DNA from: Deltaproteobacteria bacterium | GTDB lineage: Bacteria > UBA10199 > JACPAL01 > JACOUP01 | Direction of reading: 5' to 3' | DNA: 64,000 nucleotides | NCBI GenBank assembly: GCA_016177765.1 | Contig: JACOUP010000008.1 | Span: 65,021 to 129,020, forward strand | In this document: positions 13,243 to 62,186 of the stretch, one piece after another | Layout of the letters: each line of letters opens with the position of its first letter | How positions within the stretch are numbered: the stretch's first letter is position 1 | Program-made: the position numbers and the translations under genes | Notes under the pieces: model-generated | The model's input: only the letters and a program-made list of their open reading frames with translations | Databases searched by the model: none | What the model was told of the DNA's origin: nothing

Positions 13243-17565
<4,323 letters not shown>

Positions 17566-19504: not shown

Positions 19505-21217
19505 ATGGCCCCTCCTGATCCGATCAGTCCCGGCAGTCGTCCCCCTTTTCTTAACGACCCCTTTTTCGCCCGATACCGGGAATCGGTCGCCGCCCGGGAA
19601 TCGATCCTCCACCACACCACGGTTCATGCCCAACAGGTACAGGTCGAATTTTTGGGGGTCATCCATGGTGATTATCGTTTCCGTGAAACCGTTGTCTCCT
19701 CCGAACCGGGGGTCAGTTTTACAAAAACGAACGCCTGGAGCTATGAGGGGTTGCGGTGGCTCCGGCATGCCCCGGACCTCAGTGGGGCCGAGGCGATCTG
19801 CTACGCCGGGGCGGGAATCGCCGCCGTTGGGATCGCCGGCTGGGTCGCGGTGGAAGGGGGAATTGTCACCCTCGCGGCAAAAACCCCTGAAGCGGTGGCC
19901 GCCCTGCAAAAAACCATGATCGCCTATTGGACACAAAAACGGATCATCACGGCAGTCACCGCCGGAGGGGTGAACGTCGTTGTGGGGGAGGCAGTCTCTC
20001 CCCTCTTCGGCCATACGCCCGACGCGCGTGAATCGGTTTTGAATTTTGGTTTCGGGGCCGCCACAGGGCTGGTCTTCCCGCTCCCGGAGCTTGGGCTTCT
20101 GGAAGCGGTCGCCAACCGACAGTGGGTTCCCTATTTCCTGCAAAGTCTGCAAAGGGGGGCCACGCTCCATGGCCCGATGGGGGCGACCTGGTCGGTTGCA
20201 AATCTGGCGACCCATCCGGAACAAGACAGCGGACCGGCAGGTATCGCGAGCCATGCACTCAGCGGGTTTGTGGCCGGGGCCGCCCTCGGCCCGGCCGTGG
20301 ATAATCTCCTCTACGGCATCGGTGCCACCACGAGAAACTTTATCGAGATTGGACCGCCACGGGTTGCCGTCAAGGTCACCTCCGGAAAAACAACCGGGAG
20401 ACAACCTCCCCAAACAGAACCAGAGGGTGTGCCACCCAAGGGGATCTATTTCATGAAATCCCCTCCCTCCGAGTTCTTCAGCAGGGAGGTAGAGGTTGAT
20501 TTTGATCTACTCTTGAGACTCTGCGAAGAGCATGGAGCGGATGGCACTATTAAGGGCATGCTCGAAACCTTTCGAAGCATTGAGTCCGGTAAAAAGATTG
20601 CTGTCCGTGTGGACATGGCCCGCGATGGAACACTTTCTTTCTATCTCCCCAACTTCAGTCAAAGGACCATCCATCTCCCCACAAGAGAATATAGGGCATG
20701 GCGCGAATTTTTTGAGGAGCATACCGGCATTGAATTCCCGAGGGCAGAATCGGGGGTGGCGGAAACGGTCCCCCCCGTTGCCGCTGAGAGAGATACCGTC
20801 CCATTTCAGCCGGGAGAACCCGCCACCCCTCCCTTCACGAGACCCGAAACCGCCGAGCACCCCTCACTAAGAGAACCGCCCGACTTTCCTCCCGGCACAA
20901 CAGCAGTGGTTCCAAGAACAGCCTTTCCAGCCTTTGATGCCACCCCCAGAGATGTGAGGACCCTTGTCACGAATCAAAATCGTCCGATCGGAAAGGCCCT
21001 GGACCTTCTCAAAGGAGATCCTCCTGAATCGTTACTCGCCTTCGATTCCCTCCTGGAACAAGCGATCAAGACCGGGGAAGATCAGTACGCAAAACTCCCG
21101 AACGGCTGGTCGGTCCAGATCACCCGCACCCCGGCTTCAGACCCTATCAGCGCCCCTCCCGGACAATCGGCCGAGCTCCAGCCGGTTCTTCACTTCCAAT
21201 TTTTCATGGAAGATTAA
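19505..21217 (+). CDS. Hypothetical protein (Gly/Ala-rich N-half, Pro-rich C-half); contains repeat-encoded GVPPKG
   Basis: 570-aa ORF. No recognisable domain. Confidence 0.45.
   Translation: MAPPDPISPGSRPPFLNDPFFARYRESVAARESILHHTTVHAQQVQVEFLGVIHGDYRFRETVVSSEPGVSFTKTNAWSYEGLRWLRHAPDLSGAEAICYAGAGIAAVGIAGWVAVEGGIVTLAAKTPEAVAALQKTMIAYWTQKRIITAVTAGGVNVVVGEAVSPLFGHTPDARESVLNFGFGAATGLVFPLPELGLLEAVANRQWVPYFLQSLQRGATLHGPMGATWSVANLATHPEQDSGPAGIASHALSGFVAGAALGPAVDNLLYGIGATTRNFIEIGPPRVAVKVTSGKTTGRQPPQTEPEGVPPKGIYFMKSPPSEFFSREVEVDFDLLLRLCEEHGADGTIKGMLETFRSIESGKKIAVRVDMARDGTLSFYLPNFSQRTIHLPTREYRAWREFFEEHTGIEFPRAESGVAETVPPVAAERDTVPFQPGEPATPPFTRPETAEHPSLREPPDFPPGTTAVVPRTAFPAFDATPRDVRTLVTNQNRPIGKALDLLKGDPPESLLAFDSLLEQAIKTGEDQYAKLPNGWSVQITRTPASDPISAPPGQSAELQPVLHFQFFMED
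20424..20443. repeat. Palindromic repeat copy (aGGGTGtgcCACCCaaGGGG)
   Basis: In-frame in 19505..21217, encoding GVPPKG. Confidence 0.65.
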
Positions 21218-22843: not shown

Positions 22844-23149
22844 ATGGAACTGCATATGACCTTCCGACACACCGCCCCTACGGAGGCGTTGAAGAGTCAT
22901 GTTGAAGAAAAGCTGGGAAGGCTGACCAAGTATTTTGTCAAACCGGAGGCGTTTCATGTGATCCTGACGGTGGAAAGGGCCCGTCATATTGTCGAGATCA
23001 CATTCTCGGAAAACGGCAACCTCTACACCGCCAGGGAGAAAACAAACAATATGTACCTCTCCATTGACCGAACCATCCACAAGCTGGAACACCAGCTTAA
23101 AAAATACAAAGAGAAGCTCAAAGAACACAAGAAAAAGAGGCTGATTTGA
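22844..23149 (+). CDS. hpf: Ribosome hibernation promoting factor / sigma-54 modulation protein
   Basis: 101 aa, of the YfiA/HPF family, in its conserved position after rpoN. Confidence 0.8.
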   Translation: MELHMTFRHTAPTEALKSHVEEKLGRLTKYFVKPEAFHVILTVERARHIVEITFSENGNLYTAREKTNNMYLSIDRTIHKLEHQLKKYKEKLKEHKKKRLI

Positions 23150-23209
23150 GTCTATTTAGTATTGCTTTTCTTCCAACGGTGTCCTAGCGTCCCCCCCTCG
23201 AGTGACACC

Positions 23210-23680
23210 ATGAAGATCAAGCAGATCCTCCGCGAGAGCTCAGTTGAATCCAACCTCAAGGCCGATTCCAAGGAAGGGGTCATTGAGGAACTGGCCTCCC
23301 TGCTCCTGCAGGGACAGGCGGCGCCTCAACCGGAATTCAGGGAGAAACTGGTCCGCGTCCTGATGGAGCGGGAAAAATTGGGGAGCACCGGCATCGGGAA
23401 CGGCGTCGCGATCCCCCACGGCAAGATGCCCGGTCTGGGCGAGATCATGACCGGCTTTGGGCGAAGCCCGAAAGGGATCGAGTTTGATTCGCAGGATGGA
23501 AGGTCGGCCCATCTTTTCTTCATCCTCGTGGCCCCGGAAAATGCCGCCAGTCTCCACCTCAAGGCCTTGGCCCGCCTGTCCCGGCTTTTGAAAGATGCCC
23601 ACTTCAGAAACAAGTTGATGGAGGCAGAATCCGCCCACGCCTTGTACCAGGCGATTGTTGAAGAAGATGAGAAATTCTAA
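23210..23680 (+). CDS. ptsN: PTS IIA-like nitrogen regulatory protein (EIIA-Ntr)
   Basis: EIIA-Fru/Ntr fold (…GIGNGVAIPHGK…). The start is set at MKIKQILRE (23210). Confidence 0.8.
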   Translation: MKIKQILRESSVESNLKADSKEGVIEELASLLLQGQAAPQPEFREKLVRVLMEREKLGSTGIGNGVAIPHGKMPGLGEIMTGFGRSPKGIEFDSQDGRSAHLFFILVAPENAASLHLKALARLSRLLKDAHFRNKLMEAESAHALYQAIVEEDEKF

Positions 23681-24648
23681 TGATCTCTGTCTCTATCAAT
23701 GAACTGCTGGGCGACAAAGAGTACAAACTCGCTCTGGAGTTGGTGGCCGGCGAAAAAGGGCTCCCCAAAAAAATCGTCATCCCCCAGATCCAGAAACCGG
23801 GGCTCGCCCTGACAGGCGACACCTCCAACCTTCATCCGGGCCGAATCCAGATCCTGGGAACTTCGGAACTCAATTTCTTGACCCGGCTCCCCGCGGCCAA
23901 AAGAAGGACCATTATCAAAAAAATCTGTCATGTGGATATCGCCTGTTTTATTGTCACCCATGGCAATCCAATCCCGGAGTCTTTTGTCGAGGAAACGGAA
24001 AAGAACAGAATCCCCCTCCTCAAGACAACCCTTTCCACCGCCACCTTTATTATGAGGGTCTCGCGCTTTCTGGAAGACAAATTGACAGCCCAGACCGCCA
24101 TTCACGGGGTCCTTGTCGACATCTTCGGGGTCGGCATCCTGCTGGTTGGCAAAAGCGGCATCGGCAAGAGCGAGTCTGCCCTGGAGCTGATCATGAAGGG
24201 GCACCGTCTGGTTGCCGATGATATCGTCAACATCCGCAAAAAACCGCCCGGCACCCTTTATGGCAGCGGTTCCGAGCTGATCAAGTACCATATGGAGATA
24301 CGGGGATTGGGGATCATCAACATCAAGGATCTCTTTGGTGTCAGCTCCGTCAGGGACCAGAAGCTGATTGAGCTGGTGATCGAACTGGTCGAGTGGAAAC
24401 CCAGTGAAGAATATGAGCGGCTCGGGGTCACGGAACATACCTACAAGATTCTGGATGCCAAGGTCCCTTTCCTTCGAATCCCTGTCCGCCCGGGGAGAAA
24501 CCTGACAGCGATCATCGAAGTGGCCGCCCGCAATCAGCTCCTGAAGGCCAAAGGGGTCTATTCGGCCTATGAACTCCAGGAAAATCTGACAAGAGAACTC
24601 TTGAACCAGCAAAAGGAAAAGGATCTCCCTCAAGGGATCATGGAATAA
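23680..24648 (+). CDS. hprK: HPr kinase/phosphorylase
   Basis: P-loop GVLVDIFGVGILLVGKSGIGKSE and the catalytic LVADD. Start ATG overlaps the ptsN TAA (ATGA-type overlap). Confidence 0.9.
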   Translation: MISVSINELLGDKEYKLALELVAGEKGLPKKIVIPQIQKPGLALTGDTSNLHPGRIQILGTSELNFLTRLPAAKRRTIIKKICHVDIACFIVTHGNPIPESFVEETEKNRIPLLKTTLSTATFIMRVSRFLEDKLTAQTAIHGVLVDIFGVGILLVGKSGIGKSESALELIMKGHRLVADDIVNIRKKPPGTLYGSGSELIKYHMEIRGLGIINIKDLFGVSSVRDQKLIELVIELVEWKPSEEYERLGVTEHTYKILDAKVPFLRIPVRPGRNLTAIIEVAARNQLLKAKGVYSAYELQENLTRELLNQQKEKDLPQGIME

Positions 24649-24656
24649 GGAGAGAT

Positions 24657-25112
24657 ATGATAGGAGCCGTTGTCGTGACTCATGGCAACATCGGGACGGA
24701 AATGATCCGGGCCGCCGAATCGATCGTGAAAGAGAAACTCCCGTTTCTTGGCGTCGCCCTGGAACATCACGAATCAGTCCCTACGATGAAAAGCAAGATC
24801 CGGGAGGCGATCGCTTCCTGTCATTCCCCTCAAGGGGTTCTTCTCCTCTCCGATCTGTTCGGAGGGACTCCCTGCAATCTCTGTCTCTCCTTTCTGAAAG
24901 AAGTAAAGGTGGAGGTGGTCACCGGGGTCAATCTCCCGATGCTGATCAAACTCGCCCATTATCGGGAAAACAGGCCGCTGAAAGAAGTGGCCCGTTTCAT
25001 CAGAGAATATGGCAAAAAAAACATCACCTTGGCAAGACAGGTCCTCAAGGGTGATCCACCCAGGGGTGAGTCACCCAAGGGACAAGGGTCCGGTCTATCG
25101 CGATCAGGCTAG
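24657..25112 (+). CDS. PTS EIIA component, mannose/fructose (EIIA-Man) family, with a repeat-encoded C-terminal tail
   Basis: MIGAVVVTHGNIGTEMIRAAE is a typical EIIA-Man N-terminus. The C-terminus KGDPPRGESPKGQGSG is encoded by the repeat. Confidence 0.75.
   Translation: MIGAVVVTHGNIGTEMIRAAESIVKEKLPFLGVALEHHESVPTMKSKIREAIASCHSPQGVLLLSDLFGGTPCNLCLSFLKEVKVEVVTGVNLPMLIKLAHYRENRPLKEVARFIREYGKKNITLARQVLKGDPPRGESPKGQGSGLSRSG
25046..25081. repeat. Palindromic repeat copy, ~2.5 units, at EIIA C-terminus / ptsH start
   Basis: caaGGGTGatcCACCCagGGGTGagtCACCCaaGGG encodes KGDPPRGESPKG in the EIIA frame. It contains both candidate GTG starts of ptsH in the +1 frame. Confidence 0.85.
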
Positions 25113-25371
25113 AAAGACCTACAAGATCACTAATGATCTCGGTCTTCATGCCAGGGCGGCGGCCCTGTTTGTAAAAATTGCCGGACGTTACAAATCCGAG
25201 GTACTCGTCCGTCGCGGAAACCAGGAGGTCAATGGCAAGAGCATTATGGGGGTCCTGATGCTGGCCGCCGGCCGCGGCTCTGAAATAAGCGTCATCACCA
25301 CCGGAGAGGATGCCCAGGAGGCGCTCCAGGAACTGGGACAACTCATCGAAAACAAGTTTGGTGAAAAGTGA
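25066..25371 (+). CDS. ptsH: Phosphocarrier protein HPr
   Basis: …KITNDLGLHARAAALFVKIAG… gives the His15 region and …GKSIMGVLMLAA… the Ser46 region. The start is uncertain: in-frame candidates are GTG 25051, GTG 25066 (both inside a repeat copy) and ATG 25009. Confidence 0.65.
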   Translation: MSHPRDKGPVYRDQARKTYKITNDLGLHARAAALFVKIAGRYKSEVLVRRGNQEVNGKSIMGVLMLAAGRGSEISVITTGEDAQEALQELGQLIENKFGEK

Positions 25372-27113
25372 AGAAAAAAAAGATAAAAACCTTAAAAGGA
25401 CTCGGTGTCTCTCCCGGTATTGCGGTTGGCAAGGTCCATCTGTTTGATACCGGCCCGATTTCTTTCCCAAAATACTGGATTGCTGACCGGGAAATCGGCT
25501 CGGAGGCAGCTCGTTTCAAGAAGGCGATAGAAAAGGTCCGTCATCAGCTTTTGAAAATCCGCGACAAACTTTGTAAATTTCAGGTGGGTGACGAGATCCG
25601 GATCCTCGACTCCTACCAGATGATCGCCAAGGATGAAATGCTCTATTCCTCTACCGTCAACACGATCCGGCAGGAGAAGATCAATGCCGAATGGGCCCTG
25701 GATAAAACCTTAGCCGGTGTCAAGGCCGCCTTCCTCGAAAGCCCTTCGGAATTTTTTAAGGAACGGCGGGCCGATGTGGAACATGTCGGCAATCTGATTT
25801 TTAAAAACCTCCTTGGTGAAGAAGAAGTCACCCTTCGGTTCAAGAAAAATACCATCCTTGTCGTTCACGACCTCTCCCCCGCGGATACCGCCCAGATCGT
25901 CAAGGGGACGATTCAGGGATTCATCACGGAGGTTGGCGGCAAAACATCCCACACCGCAATCTTTGCCAAGGCCCTTGAGATCCCTGCGGTCGTCGGGGTT
26001 GTGGAGGCCACTCGTACCGTTGCCGAAGGAAATTCGCTCCTTCTTGACGGAAGTGAGGGGATCGTGATTATCAACCCCTCCACCAGTGACAAAAAAAGAT
26101 ACCAGGAGATCAAGAAAAAACAGGGACTCATGGACACCCTTCTCCTGAAAGGGGCCCACCTGCCGGCAGTCACCAAGGATAATTTTACCCTCCGTCTGGC
26201 GGCCAACATGGAACTCCTGGAAGAGATCCCTACCATCAAGAAATATGGCGCCGAAGGGATCGGGCTCTACCGGACAGAGGTCCTCTATCTCCGCAATAAA
26301 CGTCTCCCTTCCGAAGAGGAACATTTTGAAAGTTACAAAAAGGTCCTCCAGAAAATTGCCCCCCATCCGGCAACGATCCGGACCCTGGACATCGGAGGGG
26401 ACAAGATTCTGCCTGACTCGGAATATATGGAAGGACTAAACCCGGCCCTCGGTTTCAGGGCGATCCGTCTCTGCCTCCGGGAAAAGGAACTCTTCAGGAC
26501 ACAACTCCGTGCGATGCTTCGAGCTTCTATTTATGGCAAACTGAAGATCCTCCTCCCGATGATCTCCAGTGTGGAAGAGATCCGCCAGGTCAAAAAGATC
26601 CTGGCTGATGTCCGGGAGGATCTCGATCGAAAAGGGGTCCGCTATGATCCCGACATCCGGTTGGGAACGATGATTGAGGTCCCCTCGGCCGCCATGATGG
26701 CCGACGCTATCGCCGGAGAGGTTGATTTCCTCAGCATCGGAACCAACGACCTGATCCAGTACAGCCTCGCTATCGACCGGGTGAACGAGCATGTCGCCTA
26801 CCTTTATGAACCACTTCATCCCGCCATCTTGCGTCTTCTCAAACAGGTGGTTGAGGCCGGGCGTGAAAAAAAGATTGAGGTCTCGGTCTGCGGAGAGATG
26901 GCAGGCGAGCCGTTGTATCTTTTGATCCTTTTGGGTCTCGGTTTTACCGAACTTTCCATGAATCCCCTCTCCATCCCACGCGTCAAAAAAATCCTCCGCC
27001 AGGTGACTTTCAAACAGGGAAGCGACCTCGTTGAGAAGGCCCTCGCCTGTAAAACTACCTCCGAGGTGGAACACCTTGTCCGCCGGGAGATGGCTAAGGT
27101 CCAGGAGATCTAG
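25368..27113 (+). CDS. ptsI: Phosphoenolpyruvate-protein phosphotransferase (Enzyme I)
   Basis: 581 aa with the active-site His region GGKTSHTAIFAKALEIPAVVG and the PEP-utilising C-domain (…IGTNDLIQY…). Confidence 0.9.
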   Translation: MKKKKIKTLKGLGVSPGIAVGKVHLFDTGPISFPKYWIADREIGSEAARFKKAIEKVRHQLLKIRDKLCKFQVGDEIRILDSYQMIAKDEMLYSSTVNTIRQEKINAEWALDKTLAGVKAAFLESPSEFFKERRADVEHVGNLIFKNLLGEEEVTLRFKKNTILVVHDLSPADTAQIVKGTIQGFITEVGGKTSHTAIFAKALEIPAVVGVVEATRTVAEGNSLLLDGSEGIVIINPSTSDKKRYQEIKKKQGLMDTLLLKGAHLPAVTKDNFTLRLAANMELLEEIPTIKKYGAEGIGLYRTEVLYLRNKRLPSEEEHFESYKKVLQKIAPHPATIRTLDIGGDKILPDSEYMEGLNPALGFRAIRLCLREKELFRTQLRAMLRASIYGKLKILLPMISSVEEIRQVKKILADVREDLDRKGVRYDPDIRLGTMIEVPSAAMMADAIAGEVDFLSIGTNDLIQYSLAIDRVNEHVAYLYEPLHPAILRLLKQVVEAGREKKIEVSVCGEMAGEPLYLLILLGLGFTELSMNPLSIPRVKKILRQVTFKQGSDLVEKALACKTTSEVEHLVRREMAKVQEI

Positions 27114-28612: not shown

Positions 28613-29346
28613 AGGGGGTCATCCTGGCTGCGGGACAGGGGAGCCGGCTCGGGTTACTCACTCGATCACGACCGAAGGCGCTTGTCCCGGTTCTGGAAAA
28701 ACCCCTTATCGAGTACATCCTGACCCTTTGTGATGAAGCCTCTCTGGAGGAGATCATCGTTGTTGGGGGGTATCAGTTTTATAAATTGGCGGCCGTTTTG
28801 GAAAAAAGAGCCGGTGGCACACCCTTGGGTGGCACACCCTACCGCCTCCTCCAAAACCGAGAGTACAAAAAAGGGAACCTGCTGACCCTTGTTTGCGCCC
28901 TCCCTTTTCTGGAGGGGGATTTTTTTATTGCCAATGCCGATCACATTTACCCCCCATCCCTTTTCCACAGCTTTCTGAAAAACGCCAAAGAGATTTCAGC
29001 GGCCTGTGATTTTGACCGTCAACTCTCCGGTGACGACATGAAGATCCGTCATGATTCTCAAAAACGACTTTTGGCGATCAGCAAGAAGCTCCCTACTTAT
29101 GACGGCGGTTATATCGGCATGACCTCCTGTACCAAAAAGAGGCGTGGGCTCTACGAACGGGCCGTTGAGGCCACCTTTCAAAGGAAAGGGACAAAGGCGG
29201 TTGTGGAGGAGGTGCTGGAGACACTGATCCTGTGGGGTGAAAATCCGCTTGTTCACGATGCCAGCGGGCACCGTTGGTGGGAAGTCGATACCCCTTCAGA
29301 GATTCAAACAGTGGAAAGAGAACTCGCCTTGTTCCGTGCCCGGTAG
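28609..29346 (+). CDS. Sugar-/alcohol-phosphate nucleotidyltransferase (MobA-like NTP-transferase fold), with an in-frame repeat insert GGTPLGGTP
   Basis: N-terminal MKGVILAAGQGSRLG. Its start overlaps the preceding stop (4-bp overlap). Confidence 0.7.
   Translation: MKGVILAAGQGSRLGLLTRSRPKALVPVLEKPLIEYILTLCDEASLEEIIVVGGYQFYKLAAVLEKRAGGTPLGGTPYRLLQNREYKKGNLLTLVCALPFLEGDFFIANADHIYPPSLFHSFLKNAKEISAACDFDRQLSGDDMKIRHDSQKRLLAISKKLPTYDGGYIGMTSCTKKRRGLYERAVEATFQRKGTKAVVEEVLETLILWGENPLVHDASGHRWWEVDTPSEIQTVERELALFRAR
28814..28839. repeat. Palindromic repeat copy, 2 units, variant GGTGGCACACCC
   Basis: ggTGGCACaccctTGGGTggcacaccc, in-frame in the nucleotidyltransferase, encoding GGTPLGGTP. Confidence 0.8.
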
Positions 29347-30332
29347 AAGGACAAAAGAAGCCAGCCGGTGGTGACAAAAAAACCGGAACGGAGATGACGG
29401 ATAATCTGCAGAGAAACACCAATCGCCGGGTTAAGTTTCATGAAGTAAAAAACGAGCCCGTTGACCCCTTCAAGAATCCCAAGGCTCCCCGGTATAAAAC
29501 TGAAGACGAAATTACAGAGCGGCACCATGGCGGTCAGCCCCCACAAGGCCGTTACTGGAAGCGGTAATCCCAAGAAATAGAGGATCAACGCCGTTTCTGC
29601 AACCATCACACAACGGGTCATGAAATGACAACCAAAGGCGGCGGCAACCCTCCATCCCCCTTCACGATAGGCCTGCCGGATCAGGTGGTCCACCTCCAGG
29701 AGTTCCTTTCTTTTTTCGGGGGAAATTCTCCTGGTGGCTTGAATACGATCACCAATCTTCAGGAGGACCTCGAACAGGCCTCTTCTTTGAACGAGAAAGA
29801 GGGAGAGGATGGCGACAAAAAGGACGGCCAACCCTCCCGCCAGTTGAAAGACCATACGGACCGGAAGAACCCAGTAAGAGAAAAAGAGGCCAAAGCCGAT
29901 CGCGATGAAAGAGATGACCGCCAAGGTGTAGAGAGACCGATCGACAACAATGGAACGGGTCCCTCCCTGCCAGGGGATATCCCCTCTCAGGAGGTAAACC
30001 CGCAGAGGGTCACCGGCGGCAAAGTTGAGCGGGGTCGTGGCATTCACCGCCTCCCCGATCATCTTGACTTTCAGGAGCCTCCAGAAAGAAGGGTTTTTCT
30101 GCTTGGGTGAACCACCCTTGGGTGAATCACCCTGGGGACCCAGACACAAGGACCAGGCGGTCGCAAAAAGAAAATAATTGACCAGGCTCAGGGAAAGGAC
30201 CGGGATGAAACGCCAGTTAAAATTGATCAACTGGTTCCACAAGACCTCTGGGCCACTTTTCCAGACAACCACAGCGAGAACGGCCAGTCCTATCAGAGGC
30301 AGGAGATACCGAAGAAGTCGCCAACGTTTCAT
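29304..30332 (-). CDS. UPF0104 / lysylphosphatidylglycerol-synthase-TM-region-like (flippase-like) membrane protein, with repeat-encoded GDSPKGGSPK loop
   Basis: 342 aa, polytopic. N-terminus MKRWRLLRYLLPLIGLAVLAVVVW… is typical of the family. Confidence 0.6.
   Translation of the reverse strand: MKRWRLLRYLLPLIGLAVLAVVVWKSGPEVLWNQLINFNWRFIPVLSLSLVNYFLFATAWSLCLGPQGDSPKGGSPKQKNPSFWRLLKVKMIGEAVNATTPLNFAAGDPLRVYLLRGDIPWQGGTRSIVVDRSLYTLAVISFIAIGFGLFFSYWVLPVRMVFQLAGGLAVLFVAILSLFLVQRRGLFEVLLKIGDRIQATRRISPEKRKELLEVDHLIRQAYREGGWRVAAAFGCHFMTRCVMVAETALILYFLGLPLPVTALWGLTAMVPLCNFVFSFIPGSLGILEGVNGLVFYFMKLNPAIGVSLQIIRHLRSGFFVTTGWLLLSFYRARNKASSLSTV
30102..30137. repeat. Palindromic repeat copy, ~2.3 units
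   Basis: cttGGGTGaacCACCCttGGGTGaatCACCCtgggg, in-frame in the minus-strand UPF0104 gene, encoding QGDSPKGGSPKQ. Confidence 0.85.
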
Positions 30333-32190: not shown

Positions 32191-33624
32191 ATGCCTCTAA
32201 AACTGACCGCCTACCCCACCCCCTTTCTGGAATACCGGGGGATTTTGACCCTTTGCCGTAAACTTAAAAAAGAAAGGCCCGGCCGTAAAATCGGTATTAT
32301 CCTGCCGGATGGAGAAGAAAGGAATCTCCCTCCCCATCGGTGGCTCCCAGCGATCCTGAAGGGGAACCGGCAGGAAGCGGTTGAGGATTTGAGCTCCCTC
32401 ACCTTTGGTCAACCAGTCCCTGAAGAGATTGAAGTCATTCTTTTTCCCTCCCTCACCACCCCCCCCTACCCCAAAGACAAGGAAAAGACTTCACCCCCCT
32501 GGTTTCAAGAACTGCTCCAGTCCAACAGGGAGTTTTATGGCTCCTACCCCCTGATGGACTCCCTGGGGCGCGAGGTGGAGAAGTCACCGTGGCTCGAGGG
32601 TGGTTCACCCAAGGAAAGTGAATTTGAATCCCATCTGGAATCCCCCGACCTGACCAAAATCCCATTTCATCCCGGTCCAAACCTCCGTTCTCCAAAGGCC
32701 CTGGCCCTTCTCAAGGGAGAGCTGGACCAGCACCATTTCTCCGCTACTGAACTGGAGAGTTACCAGAATTCCCCCTTTCAACATTTCGCCAAATATCTGC
32801 TGAAATTAAAGCCGGTCAAGGAGCGAACACCGGAATTGGACCCGGGGGTTCAGGGAAAGCTGATCCATCACCTGCTGGAAGTCCTCTTTTCAAAAATGGG
32901 ACCGGAAATGAAAGGAACCTCTCAAGAGAAAAACGATGATCTTGCGGTCCGTGGAATCAAGCTGGTTTGCGAGGAATTGAACCGTCAGGAAAAGGAGCTG
33001 GGGCTCCGTCGTTCCCAACTCTGGGAACACCGAAAAAGGAGGATTCTGAGGGCCATCGAAACTTTCTTCAAGGAAGAACTCGTCCGGTTGCAGGAGGGAA
33101 ATCAGAGACTGATCCCGAACCATTTTGAATGGCGTTTTGGCCAAAAGGAACCGTATCTCTTCCCGACGGAGGGCGGCGCTGTTCCACTGACCGGTGTAGT
33201 CGATCGGATCGACATCGATCTGGAGAAAAAACGGTTTCTGGTACTGGATTACAAGACAGGTTCAAAGACGGTTTCCCTGCGAGAGTTCGAGGCAGGGCGG
33301 GCATTGCAGCTCCCACTCTATGTTGCCGCCGTCTCCTCACTGCTCCTGAAGGATCACCAACCGATCGGCGGTGTTCTCTGCAGGCTTCACGACCTGACAC
33401 GCAAAGAGGGCTTTGTCAAAATAGAGGATTCTGAAAAATACCACTGCCTCGACTCCCGTTCACAGGCGGCTGTTTCCGAACAGGAGTGGGAGGGGATCCT
33501 CATCAAAACAGCCAAGACGGTCTCCAAGATCGTCGCCGGGATGAAAAAGGGAGATTTCCCCCAGCAGGCCGAGGAGTGTGAAGAATTTTGTGAGTTCCGG
33601 GATATCTGTCGGTGCGGGACGTAA
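32191..33624 (+). CDS. PD-(D/E)xK nuclease with C-terminal Fe-S Cys cluster (AddB/Cas4-like, no helicase-like N-domain)
   Basis: …GVVDRIDIDLEKKRFLVLDYKTG… is the D…D/E-x-K nuclease core. The C-terminus CEEFCEFRDICRC plus earlier cysteines match AddB/Cas4-type staple clusters. Confidence 0.55.
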   Translation: MPLKLTAYPTPFLEYRGILTLCRKLKKERPGRKIGIILPDGEERNLPPHRWLPAILKGNRQEAVEDLSSLTFGQPVPEEIEVILFPSLTTPPYPKDKEKTSPPWFQELLQSNREFYGSYPLMDSLGREVEKSPWLEGGSPKESEFESHLESPDLTKIPFHPGPNLRSPKALALLKGELDQHHFSATELESYQNSPFQHFAKYLLKLKPVKERTPELDPGVQGKLIHHLLEVLFSKMGPEMKGTSQEKNDDLAVRGIKLVCEELNRQEKELGLRRSQLWEHRKRRILRAIETFFKEELVRLQEGNQRLIPNHFEWRFGQKEPYLFPTEGGAVPLTGVVDRIDIDLEKKRFLVLDYKTGSKTVSLREFEAGRALQLPLYVAAVSSLLLKDHQPIGGVLCRLHDLTRKEGFVKIEDSEKYHCLDSRSQAAVSEQEWEGILIKTAKTVSKIVAGMKKGDFPQQAEECEEFCEFRDICRCGT

Positions 33625-33630
33625 AAAAAT

Positions 33631-35661
33631 ATGCCTTTGACTCTAGACCAGGAAACAGCCATTTCAGTCAGCGACACTAACGTCATCCTGATCGCCTCCG
33701 CCGGTTCCGGCAAGACCTCCGTCCTGGTAGAAAAATACGCGGCCCTTTTGGGGCAAGTGGAGCCGCAGAATATCCTGGCAATCACCTTCACCGAAAAAGC
33801 GGCCAAGGAACTAAAAAACAGGATCCAGAAAAAACTGGGGTTGGCACCGGGAACTCTGGACCAGACCGTTATCAACACCTTTCACGGCTTCTGCGCCGAT
33901 CTCCTGAAGGAAAAAGAAGAGATCAAAATCATGGATGAACACCTGACCACGGCCGTTCAGGCACAACTGATTCATGACGGTCTCCTCACCCTCCTCGAAG
34001 AGGAAGAACCGTCGACCATCCGGATGATCGCCGAATTCGGTTTTCATCGAACCCACAACCTCCTCCTCACCGCCTTTGACGAGTCCTACAACCTGCGACA
34101 CTGGTGGTCCCAAAAAAAAGAAGATCTCCGGGAAGACCCGCTCATCGTTCCCTTTTTCGAACTCTTCGAAAAAATCCATCACCGCTACCAATTAGAGAAA
34201 AAAGGGAAAGGGCTTTCCGATTTTGACGACCTGGAGGAAAAAATAATCCATCTGCTGGAAACCAACGTTCCAGAAAGGGAAAAACTCCAGAACCGGTTCC
34301 GCTTCATCCTGGTGGATGAATTCCAGGATACCAGCCCGATCCAGACGCGACTTCTCGATCTCCTGCACCAGTCCGGCAAGAATCTCCTCTTTGCCGTCGG
34401 CGATCCTAAACAGTCAATCTATCAGTTCCGCGGTGCCGATCTCAGTCTCTTCAAAGAGAAGATCCGACAAATCAAAAATGGGGAGGGAAAAATACTCTAC
34501 CTCCGTGATAATTTCCGCTCTTCACCCGCCTTGATCGAACCGATCAACCGCTTTTTTGAAAAAGTCCTTCCCCCGGAAGATTTTCAACCGATGCTCCCCC
34601 GAAGCGAGAAGGAGGGACTGGGGATCCAGACGCTCCCGCTGATAGAGGTCCAAAGCGCCTCCGAAAGACGGCTTCAGGAGGCAGGAGCCATCGCCTCAAA
34701 AATCATCGAACTCCGTCAAGAAAAAAGAGATTTCCGGGAAATGGTCTGTCTCTTCCGGACACGAACAGCGATCCCTCTCTTTGAAAAGGTCTTCCAGGAG
34801 CACCAGATCCCCTGCCATGCCGTTTCCAGAGGGGCTCTTTTCGAGGCCCAAGAGGTCCTTGACCTCGTTAACCTCCTCAAGGTGATCGCCAATCCCAATG
34901 ATACCCTTTCCCTCGTCGGGGTCCTGCGCTCCCCCCTCTTCGGCCTGACCGATGAGGAGATCTTTCTTGGGTGGCACACCCTTGGGTGGCACACCCTTGA
35001 ACAAAGAGCAGGGACACTCCTGAAAAAATATCACTTTGCCAAAGAGCTCAATCAATGGTCCAAAAACAAAACCATCAGTGCCCTTCTTCTCCACCTCTGT
35101 GAACTCTCATTTTTGGAGAAACTCTTCCGGACAGCTCAGGAGACCGCCAATCTCGAACGGCTGATCGCCCTGGCAGAGTCGTTTGAGGCGCTTGGCGTCA
35201 CCACCCTGGCACAATTTCTCACCACCGTCGAGGCGCTCCGGGAGGCCGGCACCCGGATCCCGGAGGCCTCACTCTTCGCCCCGAGCGCCAACTGCGTCCG
35301 ACTGATGACCGTTCATGCCTCAAAAGGCCTTGAATTTCCTATAGTTTTTATGACAGACCTCTCGTACCGACCGAGGACCGATTCACCGCTCTTCCAGTTC
35401 CATCCGCAAAAAGGGATCGGCTTCAAACACCTTTCGGAAGATTCCCAAGGACTCAAGGATCACTTTGAAAAGAGCCCTGAATATGAGAGATTGGAAGAAG
35501 AAAAAAAGAAGAAGGGAAAGGAGGAATCGATGCGACTCCTGTATGTTGCCATGACGCGGGCCCAGGAGGGACTCTTTCTCCCACTCACGCCGATCAACGG
35601 CAATAAAAAGGGGATCACTTGGAACGACCTTCTGGTCCCCTTATTTCTGGACAAGGGATGA
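33631..35661 (+). CDS. UvrD/Rep/AddA-like SF1 helicase (no nuclease domain), with in-frame repeat insert LGWHTLGWHTL
   Basis: Walker A SAGSGKT, motif II FILVDEFQDT, and motif V/VI VHASKGLEFPIVFM. Confidence 0.8.
   Translation: MPLTLDQETAISVSDTNVILIASAGSGKTSVLVEKYAALLGQVEPQNILAITFTEKAAKELKNRIQKKLGLAPGTLDQTVINTFHGFCADLLKEKEEIKIMDEHLTTAVQAQLIHDGLLTLLEEEEPSTIRMIAEFGFHRTHNLLLTAFDESYNLRHWWSQKKEDLREDPLIVPFFELFEKIHHRYQLEKKGKGLSDFDDLEEKIIHLLETNVPEREKLQNRFRFILVDEFQDTSPIQTRLLDLLHQSGKNLLFAVGDPKQSIYQFRGADLSLFKEKIRQIKNGEGKILYLRDNFRSSPALIEPINRFFEKVLPPEDFQPMLPRSEKEGLGIQTLPLIEVQSASERRLQEAGAIASKIIELRQEKRDFREMVCLFRTRTAIPLFEKVFQEHQIPCHAVSRGALFEAQEVLDLVNLLKVIANPNDTLSLVGVLRSPLFGLTDEEIFLGWHTLGWHTLEQRAGTLLKKYHFAKELNQWSKNKTISALLLHLCELSFLEKLFRTAQETANLERLIALAESFEALGVTTLAQFLTTVEALREAGTRIPEASLFAPSANCVRLMTVHASKGLEFPIVFMTDLSYRPRTDSPLFQFHPQKGIGFKHLSEDSQGLKDHFEKSPEYERLEEEKKKKGKEESMRLLYVAMTRAQEGLFLPLTPINGNKKGITWNDLLVPLFLDKG
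34966..34999. repeat. Palindromic repeat copy, ~2.3 units, GGTGGCACACCC variant, third reading frame
   Basis: cttGGGTGgcaCACCCttGGGTGgcaCACCCttg, in-frame in the helicase, encoding LGWHTLGWHTL. The TGG variant removes the TGA that the canonical unit carries in this frame. Confidence 0.85.
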
Positions 35662-38168
35662 TCCCTTCCCTTCCTAAAGAGCTTCTGGATCAAGCCGCTT
35701 CCCCACGGGAGGCAGGGCACTTTTTTTCGGCCTGGTTCACAGCCTACCGTCAGGAAAGGGGAAATCCGCCTGATTTAAAACATCCCTCGGGCTCAAAAAT
35801 CCTTTCCCTCTTTGGGAATTCGGCATGGCTTTCCCAATTCCTCGGCAATCACCCCCTTCTCTACGATTCCCTCGGTTCCTCCCCCTTCCTCACCAAAAGA
35901 AAAGGCCTGGAAGACCACCGGGAGGACCTTCGACAAGTCCCCAAGGGTGATTCACCCAAGGGTGTGCCACCCAAGGGCGATTCGCCCACGGGCGACTTTC
36001 ATTCAAACCTCCTCCTCTATAAAAACAGCGAGCTTTTAAGGATCGCCCTCCGTTCTCTTGAAATCGGCTCTTCTGAAGAAGAAATCGGTCACGAACTTTC
36101 CGACCTGGCCCAAGCGATTGTCGAAAAGGCCCATCAGGTGCTGGGAGCCATTCATCAACGGGAATTGGGTCTTCGAAAAATTCCCCTCTGTTGCCTCGGT
36201 CTTGGAAAACTGGGAGGCCAGGACCTCAATTTCAGCTCCGACATTGATCTCCTCTACCTCTATGGTGACGATGAAGAACGAGGCTCTGAACTCTCCACCC
36301 ACGAATACTTTGTGAAGCGGGTTGAAAGAGAACGGCATTTCCTGAGCGACAAGACCGATTCTTTCCTCTATCGCGTCGATCTGGATCTTCGTCCGGAAGG
36401 GAAAAAAGGGACGCTTGTCAATTCACTCCCCGCCCTCGAAGAGTATTACGAAACCTGGGGGGCGGAATGGGAGAGAATCGCCCTCATCAAGGGACGATGC
36501 CTCGCCGGTGACAAGCCACTGGCCGAAAAATTCATCAAGATGGCCCACCCCTTTGTCTGGCGGAAAAGCTTCGAAGACTCCGCCTTGAACCAGATCAAGA
36601 CAATCAAGGAGAAAAGTGATGCCCTTTTGAGAAAAAAAGTCGTTCCCACTTTTCATGTCAAACTCGGGAGCGGCGGAATCCGGGAAGTCGAACTATTCGT
36701 CTGGATTTTTCAGTTGATCTTTGGCGGCCGCCACCCGCAACTCCAGGAAGCCCATACCCTTCAAGCCCTTCGCCAGCTCAAGGCCCTCTCCCTCATCCCC
36801 GCCAGGGAGACCAAACAGTTGGAAAAGGCCTATCTTTTCCTGCGGCGGATAGAAAACCGACTGCAAATGCAAGAGAACCAGCAAATTCATCAGATTCCGG
36901 AATCAGCCGAGGGACAGGAGGCCCTCGCCCGTCTCCTCGGTTACCCCCAGGAAACACGAAAAGCGGCCCGCAAGGCTTTCTTGGAAGACCTCGAACAAAC
37001 ACGGACCTATGTTCAAAAACATTTCGCCAGTCTCTTTGAAAGAGGACCTAAAAAACAACGCTCCTGGAAGGAAGAGCAGACGCTCAGGCTCCAGTCAGAA
37101 TTGGAGCCGCTACCGACTGTTGAAGAAAAATTCGACAGCCTGCGCCTCTTTAAAAAAGAGGTGACCGGTGAAATCATTCAGGAAGACCAATCGGGAAAAC
37201 TTTCTTTTACGAACTTTCTTGTCAGAAATACAGAACTGGCCGAGGTGATCCTCCAGGAGGCCTATCAGATCGCCCTTGCCGAAATGGCCGCCCGCTATGG
37301 TCCCCTGAAGGGAGAGGGACTCGCCATTATCGGCATGGGAAAGCTGGGGGGAAGAGAGTTGACTTACCGGTCGGACCTGGACCTCCAATTCCTCTATGAC
37401 GAAAATTCCTACAACAAAACCCTGTCCCTTCAGGAATATTTTGCAAAACTCGCTCAGAGGGTCCTCTCTTGTCTGACAATCATCACCGAACAGGGATGGG
37501 CCTACAAGATCGACACCGCCCTCCGTCCTTCGGGAAGCGCCGGTGTCCTTGTCGGTTCACTGGCCTCTTTTCTGGAATACCACGAAAAAGAGTCAAAAAC
37601 CTGGGAAAAACAGGCCCTTCTCAAGGCGAGACCGGTTGCCGGCGACCCTTTTCTTTGTGACAAGGCCGCCGTTTTTCTGAAAGGGATCCCGTTCCGCTTT
37701 CCCCCCTCCCCTTCCCTCCTCCAGGATATCGCCTCTCTCCGGACCCGGATGGAAAGAGAGATTGCCAGAGAGACCGAGTCATCCTGGAATTTGAAGACAG
37801 GATACGGCGGTATTGTGGATATTGAATTTCTGACACAAGGCCTGCAACTCCTTCATGGACGGGATTTTAGTGAATTGGCGGAGCCCAATACGCTCCTGGC
37901 CCTTGAAAAACTCTCAGGACTCCAATTTCTCACTCCCCAGGAGACCAATGACTTGAAGGAAGGGTACCAATTCCTCCGCCGTCTGGAAACCGCACTCCGG
38001 CTCCAATTGGAGAGCCCCACCGATTGTCTTGAATTAACCGCTCCCTGGCTCCCCACGATGGCAACAGCCCTCAATTTTTCTTCAGCAACGGCACTTGTCG
38101 ACGCGGCCCGCTCCTGGAGGAAAAAAATTCGCGGCCTTTATGAAGGGGTGTTTGGAAGTCGGGGCTAG
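35658..38168 (+). CDS. glnE: Bifunctional glutamine synthetase adenylyltransferase/adenylyl-removing enzyme
   Basis: Two nucleotidyltransferase modules (GLGKLGGQDLNFSSDIDLLYLY and IGMGKLGGRELTYRSDLDLQFLY). The N-terminal region contains 3.5 tandem repeat units. ATGA overlap with the helicase stop. Confidence 0.85.
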   Translation: MIPSLPKELLDQAASPREAGHFFSAWFTAYRQERGNPPDLKHPSGSKILSLFGNSAWLSQFLGNHPLLYDSLGSSPFLTKRKGLEDHREDLRQVPKGDSPKGVPPKGDSPTGDFHSNLLLYKNSELLRIALRSLEIGSSEEEIGHELSDLAQAIVEKAHQVLGAIHQRELGLRKIPLCCLGLGKLGGQDLNFSSDIDLLYLYGDDEERGSELSTHEYFVKRVERERHFLSDKTDSFLYRVDLDLRPEGKKGTLVNSLPALEEYYETWGAEWERIALIKGRCLAGDKPLAEKFIKMAHPFVWRKSFEDSALNQIKTIKEKSDALLRKKVVPTFHVKLGSGGIREVELFVWIFQLIFGGRHPQLQEAHTLQALRQLKALSLIPARETKQLEKAYLFLRRIENRLQMQENQQIHQIPESAEGQEALARLLGYPQETRKAARKAFLEDLEQTRTYVQKHFASLFERGPKKQRSWKEEQTLRLQSELEPLPTVEEKFDSLRLFKKEVTGEIIQEDQSGKLSFTNFLVRNTELAEVILQEAYQIALAEMAARYGPLKGEGLAIIGMGKLGGRELTYRSDLDLQFLYDENSYNKTLSLQEYFAKLAQRVLSCLTIITEQGWAYKIDTALRPSGSAGVLVGSLASFLEYHEKESKTWEKQALLKARPVAGDPFLCDKAAVFLKGIPFRFPPSPSLLQDIASLRTRMEREIARETESSWNLKTGYGGIVDIEFLTQGLQLLHGRDFSELAEPNTLLALEKLSGLQFLTPQETNDLKEGYQFLRRLETALRLQLESPTDCLELTAPWLPTMATALNFSSATALVDAARSWRKKIRGLYEGVFGSRG
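35939..35994. repeat. Palindromic repeat copy, ~3.5 units, in glnE
   Basis: ccaaGGGTGattCACCCaaGGGTGtgcCACCCaaGGGCGattCGCCCacGGGCG encodes PKGDSPKGVPPKGDSPTGD. Confidence 0.9.
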
Positions 38169-62157: not shown

Positions 62158-62186
62158 AGGGTGATTCACCCAAGGGTCGCTCACCC
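62158..62186. repeat. Palindromic repeat copy, 2 units, at the nagZ 3' end
   Basis: agGGTGattCACCCaaGGGTCgctCACCC. On the minus strand the unit's GGG-TGA supplies the final Gly codon and the TGA stop of nagZ. Confidence 0.8.

Follow-up and report, generated by a model that had tools for sequence, protein, structure and literature searches.

The regulatory PTS operon of this lineage has the gene order rpoN-hpf-ptsN-hprK-EIIA(Man)-ptsH-ptsI. Within the window, by which we mean the whole 64,000-nt (64 kb) stretch of DNA that was analysed, the upstream operon genes occupy 22844-24648 on the forward strand and were assigned by Pfam as hpf (22844-23149), ptsN for EIIA-Ntr (from about 23162 or 23210 to 23680) and hprK (23680-24648). 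rpoN lies farther upstream of hpf, as seen in contigs of the same species (e.g. the gene order of L081). The EIIA-Man gene follows at 24657-25112 (forward strand) and encodes 151 amino acids with the C-terminus ...VLKGDPPRGESPKGQGSGLSRSG*, ending at the stop codon TAG (25110-25112). Its product is identical to NCBI entry MBI1909091.1 and belongs to Pfam family PF03610 (residues 3-114, E=1.1e-21), with residues H9-G10 of the N-terminal TH(G) phosphorylation loop invariant in the protein alignment.

The next gene, encoding HPr (ptsH/NPr-type), is read in the +1 frame relative to EIIA-Man and spans 25009-25371 (forward strand) when counted from a conserved ATG, giving 120 amino acids as in NCBI entry MBI1909092.1. 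The product is a member of PF00381 (residues 35-115, E=7.9e-30, profile positions 2-81 of 81), and both the GLHAR motif with the active-site His and the NGKSIMG motif with the regulatory Ser are invariant in the alignment; the domain begins at about nucleotide 25111. Downstream, ptsI for Enzyme I (25368-27113, forward strand) has a GTG start that overlaps the HPr stop codon (GTGA) and Pfam domains PEP-utilisers_N, PEP-utilizers and PEP-utilizers_C. A minus-strand ORF of 141 amino acids at 25045-25470 that overlaps HPr was unsupported and was taken as spurious.

Only three canonical start codons (ATG, GTG or TTG) precede GLHAR in the HPr frame: an ATG at 25009-25011, formed by the codons for EIIA Tyr118-Gly119 (TAT GGC), and two GTGs at 25051-25053 and 25066-25068, all on the forward strand. 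A first-pass annotation had noted that EIIA runs through a repeat at this junction, that both GTGs lie inside repeat units and that 25009 is the only ATG, and all three observations were confirmed. Counted from that ATG, EIIA-Man (frame 0) and HPr (frame +1) share a dual-coding overlap at 25009-25112 (forward strand) of 104 nt, compared to 50-59 nt in relatives (computed for L087, L088, L089, L091, L093, L001, L043 and L174). The reading we favour, with a probability of roughly 80%, is that HPr starts at this conserved ATG within EIIA and that a near-neutral, lineage-specific 30-nt repeat insertion lies in frame in the overlap.

A palindromic repeat inserted in the EIIA-HPr overlap

Two palindromic units are found within the overlap, each containing one of the in-frame GTGs. 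Unit 1 (25049-25061, GGGTGATCCACCC, arranged as GGGTG-ATC-CACCC) folds alone at -7.0 kcal/mol and forms a composite 28-nt hairpin with unit 2 (25064-25076, GGGTGAGTCACCC, arranged as GGGTG-AGT-CACCC), such that the segment 25044-25082 folds at -20 kcal/mol with an ensemble frequency of 0.84 and z=-2.7. The insertion itself consists of two 15-nt units, 30 nt in total, at 25052-25081 (forward strand, TGATCCACCCAGGGGTGAGTCACCCAAGGG), with a boundary that is ambiguous through the flanking AAGGG, so that 25047-25076 is equally possible. In the nucleotide alignment, an exact 30-nt gap falls here in L088, L089, L174 and L001, and a gap of 27 nt in L091. Pairwise comparison to L087 alone gave an apparent insertion of 45 nt, but 15 nt of native sequence (GACAGGTCCTCAAGG, encoding QVLKG) are also missing from L087, and the true insertion is 30 nt. 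Translation of the insertion yields ten residues in each protein, DPPRGESPKG in EIIA and VIHPGVSHPR in HPr, and the third frame has TGA at 25052-25054 and 25067-25069.

Assemblers can stumble over short tandem palindromes, and the repeat at this junction might in that case be an assembly or sequencing artefact. There is next to no chance of this, as both units are present at the junction in six Logan contigs (L081-L086) that come from separate sequencing runs and all encode the same HPr protein P0001, and the junction also occurs in the NCBI MAG.

The first-pass annotation described the repeat as the C-terminal tail of EIIA. It is indeed translated and lengthens the tail, giving an EIIA-Man of 151 amino acids compared to 132-138 in most relatives, but only DPPRGESPKG is repeat-derived. 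The VLKG before it is the conserved native end of the last helix, and the QGSGLSRSG after it is native and homologous to the short tails of relatives. P0123, an EIIA protein with 86% identity, has the uninserted tail LARLVLKG-QKPGS*. Neither of the closer relatives, L087 and P0123, has a unit at the EIIA-tail/HPr-linker site, and P0123 carries one elsewhere in EIIA, where it is read SGSPKGGSP. L175 (EIIA 71% identical) contains one unit in the opposite orientation, at most 2 codons from the same position. A candidate degenerate unit in L174 (AAGGGCGACCCGCC, PKGDPP in HPr) was too weak to call.

Both ten-residue insertions fall in predicted disordered tails. In the AF2 model of EIIA, the last helix covers residues 108-131 and residues 132-151 are disordered with low pLDDT, while in the AF2 model of HPr, residues 1-32 are disordered (pLDDT ~50, no secondary structure) and precede a core at residues 33-120 with pLDDT >90 and the order E-H-E-E-H-E-H.

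The junction units belong to a larger family with a 15-nt unit, AAG-GGTGA-N-TCACC-C, that has a 5-bp stem and a 3-nt loop. Searching for GGGTGNNNCACCC with at most one mismatch found 25 copies in the 64-kb window, compared to 3.1 ± 1.8 (maximum 7) in dinucleotide-preserving shuffles, showing that the repeat is not a chance feature. Copies are spaced in a 15-nt tandem register, with one to three tandem copies per site, and two frames through the unit are open, one of KGDSP type and the other of RVIHP type, whereas the third reads G-TGA. The family occurs in frame inside many housekeeping genes of the window, usually read KGDSP; long ORFs contain at least 10 of its clusters, and eight such ORFs are real genes by Pfam or PDB matches. 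In PyrG, the in-frame unit forms an insertion of 7-9 amino acids, and its KGDSPRE aligns to a gap in the solved CTP synthase 9kao. Further in-frame hosts are PurL, GlnE, a UvrD-like helicase, a PD-(D/E)XK nuclease, an LPG-synthase-like protein and an NTP-transferase. An Rfam search gave zero matches anywhere in the window, and a literature search for a KGDSP repeat found nothing relevant.

We tentatively raise the possibility that the 15-nt palindrome is a coding-adapted repeat whose units are copied into native sites resembling the junction between the units themselves (..C[CT]CAAGGG..), that its two open frames allow it to occupy dual-coding sites, and that the EIIA-tail/HPr-linker is a recurrent hot spot. 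If true, this would be a previously undescribed route for seeding short Gly/Pro/Ser-rich insertions across housekeeping proteins and for lengthening gene overlaps.

Conservation of the ATG within EIIA-Man

A scan of GTDB representative genomes gave no close relative (best HPr match 69% identical), and the informative relatives were matches in the protein collection with their contigs, plus a metagenome scan. Ten lineages, comprising the window, L087, L088, L089, L091, L093, L001, L043, L095 and L174, have no HPr start near the active-site His. The ATG in the EIIA Tyr-Gly codons (TAT GGN) is kept in all ten, in the HPr frame and open to GLHAR. Among the relatives, this site sits 50-59 nt before the EIIA stop, within the codons of the last helix, and in five repeat-free relatives (L087, L088, L089, L091 and L174) it is the sole ATG, GTG or TTG. 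Gene callers choose this ATG in the relatives with overlaps of 50-59 nt.

The choice of Tyr codon also differs between lineages with and without a downstream start. TAT is used in 10/10 lineages that have no start near the His, compared to 11 TAT and 11 TAC among the 22 that have their own downstream HPr start (Fisher p=0.006), although the ten are not fully independent trials because these lineages are related. Neighbouring synonymous sites vary freely in the same sequences, including Asn (AAC/AAT), Ile (ATC/ATT) and Gly (GGC/GGA/GGG). In L093, just 10 nt separate the EIIA stop from the His codon downstream, which puts the stop within the coding sequence for the first strand of HPr, so that HPr must start inside EIIA and the overlap is obligatory there.

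At the protein level, the N-termini of HPr homologues in the closest clade read M[AVG][KR]K[TI]S..., and a linker that varies in length connects them to FKIxNELGLHAR; the extension in L095 reads MDKEIS. Conservation of MAKKTS is not by itself proof of translation, because constraint on the overlapping EIIA frame (YGQKNI) explains most of it. A like extension (MRKKTAPRKK..., beginning at the only start) is found in L013, where there is no upstream EIIA-Man gene.

Directly after the ATG is an A8 run (25014-25021, forward strand) that encodes KKN in EIIA and KKT in HPr, and that is A7-A8 in most relatives. Natural proteins such as DhaM join EIIA(Man) to HPr, and a DhaM-like fusion could be produced here by +1 frameshifting or by transcriptional loss of one A at this run, consistent with HPr being in the +1 frame and with an A7-A8 run following the ATG in 8/10 overlap-type lineages. 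We consider such a fusion unnecessary and highly improbable. Frameshifting would have no need of the ATG, whose conservation is nonetheless strict; the run is only A5 in L001 and is missing from L095, and similar A-runs occur at the non-overlapping junctions of L014, L098 and L096. A fusion would also remove the conserved terminal helix segment NIxLAGEVLKG from EIIA, and L013 has its extension without any EIIA.

Candidate start codons created by the insertion

Annotation pipelines disagree on the HPr start in this species. The NCBI annotation of the MAG gives the 120-aa form from ATG 25009, and Logan protein P0001 (106 aa) starts at GTG 25051, the choice of a Prodigal-type caller. The first-pass annotation likewise preferred the repeat, proposing that it may supply both the functional ptsH start (GTG 25051 or GTG 25066) and the ribosome-loading context, which would leave ATG 25009 unused, and that the hairpin could couple or attenuate ptsH translation. 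This proposal has some appeal, since no in-frame start lies closer to the HPr domain than these GTGs, a gene caller picked one of them, and a start there would shorten an unusually long overlap. Prodigal limits same-strand overlaps to roughly 60 nt. The choice of GTG 25051 was probably forced, because the 104-nt overlap exceeds this limit, and this codon is probably not the physiological start.

Several lines of evidence make initiation within the repeat quite unlikely. Repeat-free relatives that have no such codons keep an intact HPr with the ATG as its only start, and this same upstream ATG, which relatives without the element appear to use, is intact here. Comparison with element-free relatives, one of the checks put forward in the first pass, therefore points to ATG 25009, the very outcome that was named there as evidence against a start donated by the repeat. 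The context for ribosome loading is also poor, as both GTGs are fully paired in the -20 kcal/mol hairpin (P(unpaired) of 0.00 each), and the purine runs AAGG and AGGG lie 0-1 nt from the GTGs instead of the 5-9 nt needed for a Shine-Dalgarno (SD) interaction. The SD duplex is -3.2 kcal/mol for GTG 25051, where AAGG abuts the codon, and -4.2 kcal/mol for GTG 25066, where the spacing is wrong.

ATG 25009 has P(unpaired) of 0.44, like other operon starts, and its A-rich surroundings are unstructured (a folding energy of just -3.6 kcal/mol for segment 24995-25045, z=+1.1). A recognisable SD is absent at this ATG too (-2.9 kcal/mol), so that none of the three HPr start candidates has a good SD sequence, and the same is true of hprK and ptsI. 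We also looked for a non-canonical start just 3' of the EIIA stop, but no near-cognate codon is conserved among lineages lacking a start near the His except the Ile codon of the first strand, from which the fold would be truncated.

Initiation could in principle occur at more than one codon, with ATG 25009 as the main start and the GTGs also used when ribosomes translating EIIA melt the hairpin, giving isoforms of 106 or 101 amino acids. Such ribosomes would unfold the hairpin continuously, translation can begin at GTG, and every isoform would keep the complete HPr fold. Nonetheless, dual initiation seems unlikely to us, because an SD at functional spacing is absent, comparative support is lacking since the GTGs are unique to this species, and internal starts within a region translated in two frames are generally inefficient. 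The 101-aa product expected from GTG 25066 had no occurrence in a collection of 15 billion proteins. Judged from sequence, the GTGs exist in this species and could serve at a low level.

RNA folding also bears on the suggestion that the hairpin couples or attenuates ptsH initiation. The hairpin begins ~40 nt downstream of the likely start, and ribosomes reading either frame pass through it, so the suggestion loses its basis and a regulatory role of this kind is unlikely. We infer that the insertion is near-neutral and that the hairpin has no dedicated regulatory role.

Taken as the start actually used, as the comparative sequence evidence suggests, ATG 25009 would have HPr initiate in the +1 frame at the ATG of TAT GGC (Tyr-Gly), within the last helix of EIIA-Man, and HPr would then carry some 20-30 additional disordered residues at its N-terminus (MAKKTS...). 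Two repeat units (30 nt) were inserted into the overlap directly after native ...CTCAAGGG. This insertion would be tolerable because its length of 30 nt is divisible by 3, two frames of the unit are open, and EIIA and HPr happen to use exactly those two, leaving both genes intact. EIIA gains its ten residues just beyond the last helix and HPr would gain its ten in an unstructured linker. The overlap would be extended from about 59 to 104 nt, with two incidental in-frame GTGs that exist only because of the insertion.

By lifting a genuine 59-nt overlap to 104 nt, the insertion probably moved the HPr start chosen by a standard caller onto a repeat-created GTG, and two public pipelines therefore disagree, reporting 120 and 106 amino acids. 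The sequence-only first pass made the same wrong start inference as the gene caller.

Comparison with known systems

When prokaryotic genes seem to overlap by more than about 30 nt, the annotated start is usually wrong. The overlap here resembles other long same-strand overlaps in that the HPr start lies 50-59 nt (104 nt in this species) inside the upstream gene and both frames encode real protein parts, but it differs in being backed by several lineages without an alternative start, plus L093. These findings point to a clade of regulatory PTS operons in which HPr initiates inside EIIA-Man and carries a disordered N-terminal extension. The gene order, rpoN-hpf-ptsN-hprK-(rapZ)-EIIA-Man-HPr-EI, is like that of the incomplete or regulatory PTS operons of Gram-negative bacteria, hprK-EIIA(Man)-ptsH(-ptsI), while this clade is set apart by an HPr with an N-terminal extension and a start within the EIIA-Man gene. 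The HprK/PtsH context has been described for Xanthomonas (PMC6916182), and a literature search for an HPr N-terminal extension or an overlap with EIIA found nothing relevant.

The repeat shares features with REP, BIME and REPIN elements, which are also short, GC-rich stem-loops of high copy number whose tandem or paired units form longer hairpins. The copy number (25 per 64 kb vs 3.1) and the folding energies (-7 kcal/mol for a single unit, -20 kcal/mol for a pair) agree with that type of palindrome. However, REPs are extragenic by definition and about 35 nt long (PMC3184786), whereas most copies here are intragenic and in frame, including the clusters inside long ORFs. MITEs are 100-400 nt with terminal inverted repeats (PMC3184786), and no transposase or terminal-inverted-repeat architecture was evident for the 15-nt unit in the 64 kb analysed (the genome measures 1.36 Mb or more).

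The closest comparison is to Rickettsia palindromic elements (RPEs) and others such as BRE and RUP, which are in-frame palindromic repeats within ORFs that add internal segments or 3' or 5' extensions (Delihas 2011, PMC3184786); similarly, Coxiella QMITE2 extends EnhC (PMC5896051). As with RPEs, lineage-specific palindromic DNA here keeps the frame of its hosts, among them PyrG, PurL, GlnE and EIIA-Man, and in PyrG, EIIA/HPr and the EIIA of P0123 the in-frame insertion in a conserved gene lies at a site where homologues have none. The differences lie in size and position. RPEs are about 105-146 nt (PMC3184786), whereas the unit here is 15 nt (5 codons) in one to three tandem copies, outside the RPE length range of about 100-150 nt and with no consensus homology, the window having no Rfam match. 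At the EIIA-HPr junction, moreover, the inserted units occupy dual-coding sequence and are translated in both overlapping frames, an arrangement for which no description was found in the literature. Because a stop occurs in only one of its three frames, so small a palindromic repeat is tolerable in two frames simultaneously.

We class the 15-nt repeat as an RPE analogue, not as a member of that family. None of this overturns current understanding. The KGDSP-like loops in conserved enzymes extend RPE-style 'selfish DNA in coding genes' to a 15-nt unit from an uncultured groundwater lineage.

Candidate HPr starts at the EIIA-Man junction

The EIIA-Man and HPr genes lie in a plus-strand regulatory-PTS operon (22844-27113) that ORF calls and Pfam resolve into hpf (22844-23149), ptsN (EIIA-Ntr, ending at 23680), hprK (23680-24648), EIIA-Man (24657-25112, 151 aa), an HPr ORF (25009-25371 when read from its ATG) and ptsI (25368-27113), with rpoN directly upstream in same-species contigs. 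Residue for residue, the EIIA-Man and HPr products match MBI1909091.1 and MBI1909092.1, both encoded on a 1.355-Mb contig of an NCBI MAG that carries the label 'Deltaproteobacteria bacterium'. The start of ptsN is ambiguous: the longest ORF begins at TTG 23162 (172 aa), same-species gene calls use ATG 23210 (156 aa), and neither has a good Shine-Dalgarno match. No Rfam family reached its gathering score anywhere in the 64-kb window (1-64000).

EIIA-Man ends in ...VLKGDPPRGESPKGQGSGLSRSG before its stop codon, and HPr is read in the +1 frame relative to it, with the Pfam domain beginning only at ORF residue 35. Three ATG, GTG or TTG codons precede the conserved GLHAR motif in the HPr frame, namely ATG 25009, GTG 25051 and GTG 25066, and each GTG falls within one of two tandem palindromic units, GGGTGATCCACCC (25049-25061) and GGGTGAGTCACCC (25064-25076). 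The first-pass annotation had described the repeat-encoded EIIA tail, the HPr frame and the three starts accurately, and had proposed that the repeat may both extend EIIA-Man and donate the ptsH start, and that its hairpin could couple or attenuate ptsH translation.

RNA folding of the junction did not favor the GTGs as starts. The two units pair with each other as one -20 kcal/mol composite hairpin (ensemble frequency 0.84, z=-2.7), in which both GTGs are buried (P(unpaired) 0.00 in a 240-nt context, versus 0.44 for ATG 25009 and 0.35-0.71 for other operon starts). The A-rich surroundings of ATG 25009 are unstructured (-3.6 kcal/mol across 51 nt, z=+1.1). A real Shine-Dalgarno is absent from all three candidates (-2.9, -3.2 and -4.2 kcal/mol, versus -8.2 for EIIA and -8.3 for hpf); hprK and ptsI, which are overlapped or coupled genes, are as weak. 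The purine runs by the GTGs touch the codons rather than lying 5-9 nt upstream.

An A8 run (25014-25021) directly follows the HPr ATG, and 8 of 10 overlap-type relatives carry A7-A8. Such a run could in principle be a slippery tract able to fuse EIIA to HPr; it is probably an A-rich, unstructured initiation region.

Probable initiation of HPr inside EIIA-Man in relatives

About 170 junctions were analyzed from relatives' fetched DNA and from genome and metagenome scans. In type A (22 loci), the HPr start lies downstream of the EIIA-Man stop, 14-18 codons before the HPr His. In type B, comprising 10 independent lineages (the window, L087, L088, L089, L091, L093, L001, L043, L095 and L174), no start lies near the His, and in every type-B relative EIIA and HPr overlap by 50-59 nt. 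An ATG at the same position as ATG 25009 is the sole canonical start in the HPr ORF of L087, L088, L089, L091 and L174, all of which lack the repeat. In L093 the EIIA stop lies 10 nt before the His codon, within the coding sequence for the first strand of HPr, so HPr must initiate within EIIA. Both GTGs are confined to this species. Together with their pairing and lack of a Shine-Dalgarno, the ATG shared with repeat-free relatives argues against the repeat having donated the ptsH start, and translational coupling by the hairpin was not supported either. Minor use of the GTGs, which are in frame, is possible at low probability, as are other rival explanations.

The ATG arises from the Tyr-Gly codons of the conserved EIIA C-terminal motif YGQ(K/R)NI. 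In type B these are always TAT GGN, and without exception the resulting ATG sits in the HPr frame, with that frame open to GLHAR, whereas type A divides evenly between TAC (11) and TAT (11) (TAT in 10/10 versus 11/22, Fisher p=0.006). Synonymous sites nearby (AAC/AAT, ATC/ATT, GGC/GGA/GGG) are free to vary among type-B sequences.

The closest HPr homologues also start away from the His, with the pattern M[AVG][KR]K[TI]S-x-W/S/G-..-KSS-, then a variable-length linker and FKIxNELGLHAR, and the reading from ATG 25009 (MAKKTSPWQDRSSR...) matches this N-terminal pattern. Much of the MAKKTS conservation appears to reflect constraint on EIIA YGQKNI, and MDKEIS in L095 arises from synonymous EIIA changes; the argument therefore draws on the ATG, its frame and the lack of alternatives, not on peptide conservation. 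At locus L013, which has no EIIA-Man gene and where hprK immediately precedes HPr, a similar extension (MRKKTAPRKK...) begins at the sole start, and the extension is thus not merely a by-product of the overlapping frame. These HPr proteins form a clade with a predicted disordered N-terminal extension of ~20-30 aa and very probably initiate inside the last helix of the EIIA-Man gene, through a conserved overlap; we found no description of such a clade in the literature.

A 30-nt insertion in the dual-coding overlap

Multiple alignment of the junction places a clean gap opposite 25052-25081, of 30 nt in L088, L089, L174 and L001 and 27 nt in L091. After native ...GTC CTC AAG GG (VLKG, the conserved end of the last EIIA helix) comes the insert TGATCCACCCAGGGGTGAGTCACCCAAGGG, made up of two 15-nt units, and then native sequence again. 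The uninserted tail of P0123, an EIIA-Man homologue 86% identical to ours, reads LARLVLKG-QKPGS before the stop, compared with LARQVLKG-[DPPRGESPKG]-QGSGLSRSG in the window. The proposed extension of the EIIA-Man tail therefore holds, with 151 aa versus 132-138 aa in most relatives; HPr has 120 aa, and the nearest type-B relatives have HPr of 105-111 aa.

The repeat unit reads KGD(S/P)P in the frame that EIIA uses, RVIHP in that of HPr and G-TGA in the third, where TGA occurs at 25052 and 25067. A +1 dual-coding overlap is thus the single arrangement that leaves both genes intact after the insertion. In AlphaFold2 models, the last EIIA helix spans residues 108-131 and pLDDT drops from 61 to 43 over residues 132-151, and HPr residues 1-32 have pLDDT ~50 and no secondary structure next to a core above 90, placing both insertions in segments predicted to be disordered. 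We put the probability at roughly 80% that a near-neutral, in-frame 30-nt insertion of a lineage-specific palindromic repeat entered a conserved EIIA-Man/HPr overlap, after which HPr would still start at ATG 25009.

The junction with both units was found in six same-species contigs from separate sequencing runs (L081-L086, all encoding one HPr protein) and in the NCBI MAG, and an artefactual origin of the repeat was rejected on this recurrence. The closest repeat-free relative with DNA (L087, 505-515) also lacks 15 native nt equivalent to window 25034-25048, the QVLKG codons, and this absence is flanked by GACA microhomology; it could be imprecise loss of an earlier repeat copy or an unrelated deletion.

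A coding-tolerant repeat family and its parallels

With at most one mismatch, GGGTGNNNCACCC occurs 25 times in 64 kb versus 3.1 +/- 1.8 in shuffles, and copies stand in 15-nt tandem register. Most lie in frame inside long ORFs, usually reading [KQE]G[DGV][SP]P (KGDSP), and Pfam confirmed the host genes: PurL (4998-5025, in frame), PyrG (16893-16905 and, in the C-terminal tail at aa 564-568, 17499-17511, both KGDSP), an NTP-transferase (28812-28839, AGGTPLGGTP), an LPG-synthase-like protein (30105-30132, QGDSPKGGSP), a PD-(D/E)XK nuclease (32598-32610, EGGSP), a UvrD-like helicase (34969-34996, GWHTLGWHTL) and GlnE (35945-35987, KGDSPKGVPPKGDSP). Further copies are at 12197-12209, 20425-20437 and 62159-62186. 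KGDSPRE in PyrG stands opposite a gap in solved CTP synthase. The PyrG tail unit lies past residue 557, the last aligned to any solved CTP synthase, and is a second repeat-extended protein tail adjoining a gene junction. The helicase gene reads its copy in the unit's third frame, as variant GGGTGGCACACCC, with TGG replacing the common stop TGA, consistent with selection filtering which variants survive in each frame.

The exact motif was absent from 168 fetched loci of other organisms and present in L175 and L176 (L175 1025-1045; L176 611-631). P0123 carries SGSPKGGSP after EIIA residue ~55, a different position from the window insertion. L175 (EIIA 71% identical, HPr of type A) has one unit, CTTGGGTGAACCACCCTTGG, apparently in opposite orientation and at most 2 codons from the window insertion site (...ATQIL-GEPPL-EGD...). 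The element is missing at this site from L087 and P0123, which are closer relatives, and this makes recurrent insertion at a preferred site in the EIIA tail plausible; native CTCAAGGG is similar to the junction between units, CCCAAGGG. On these sequence comparisons, the L175 and P0123 units suggest an active, site-preferring family in the clade. In L174 (595-612), AAGGGCGACCCGCC spans the EIIA stop, encodes PKGDPP in the HPr linker and resembles a GGGCG...CGCCC unit variant; this could be either a degenerated copy or chance.

Public annotations of HPr disagree, with 120 aa from ATG 25009 at NCBI (MBI1909092.1) versus 106 aa from GTG 25051 in Logan (P0001). Prodigal-type callers limit same-strand overlaps to roughly 60 nt; where relatives overlap by 50-59 nt, callers of this kind choose the ATG. 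Here the repeat has stretched the overlap to 104 nt, past that limit, which probably explains the Logan call. The case matters in practice for gene-start annotation and offers a lead on a mini-repeat family tolerated in coding DNA.

We found no published description of a palindromic element that lies in a gene overlap and is translated in both frames. Repeats inserted in frame, either adding peptide inside a protein or lengthening its gene at the 3' or 5' end, are documented for Rickettsia RPEs, BRE, RUP and Coxiella QMITEs (PMC3184786; PMC5896051). The 15-nt family works the same way, but is not a member of these groups, whose units are about 100-400 nt, and lacks a terminal-inverted-repeat architecture. 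It also departs from REPs, which are extragenic.
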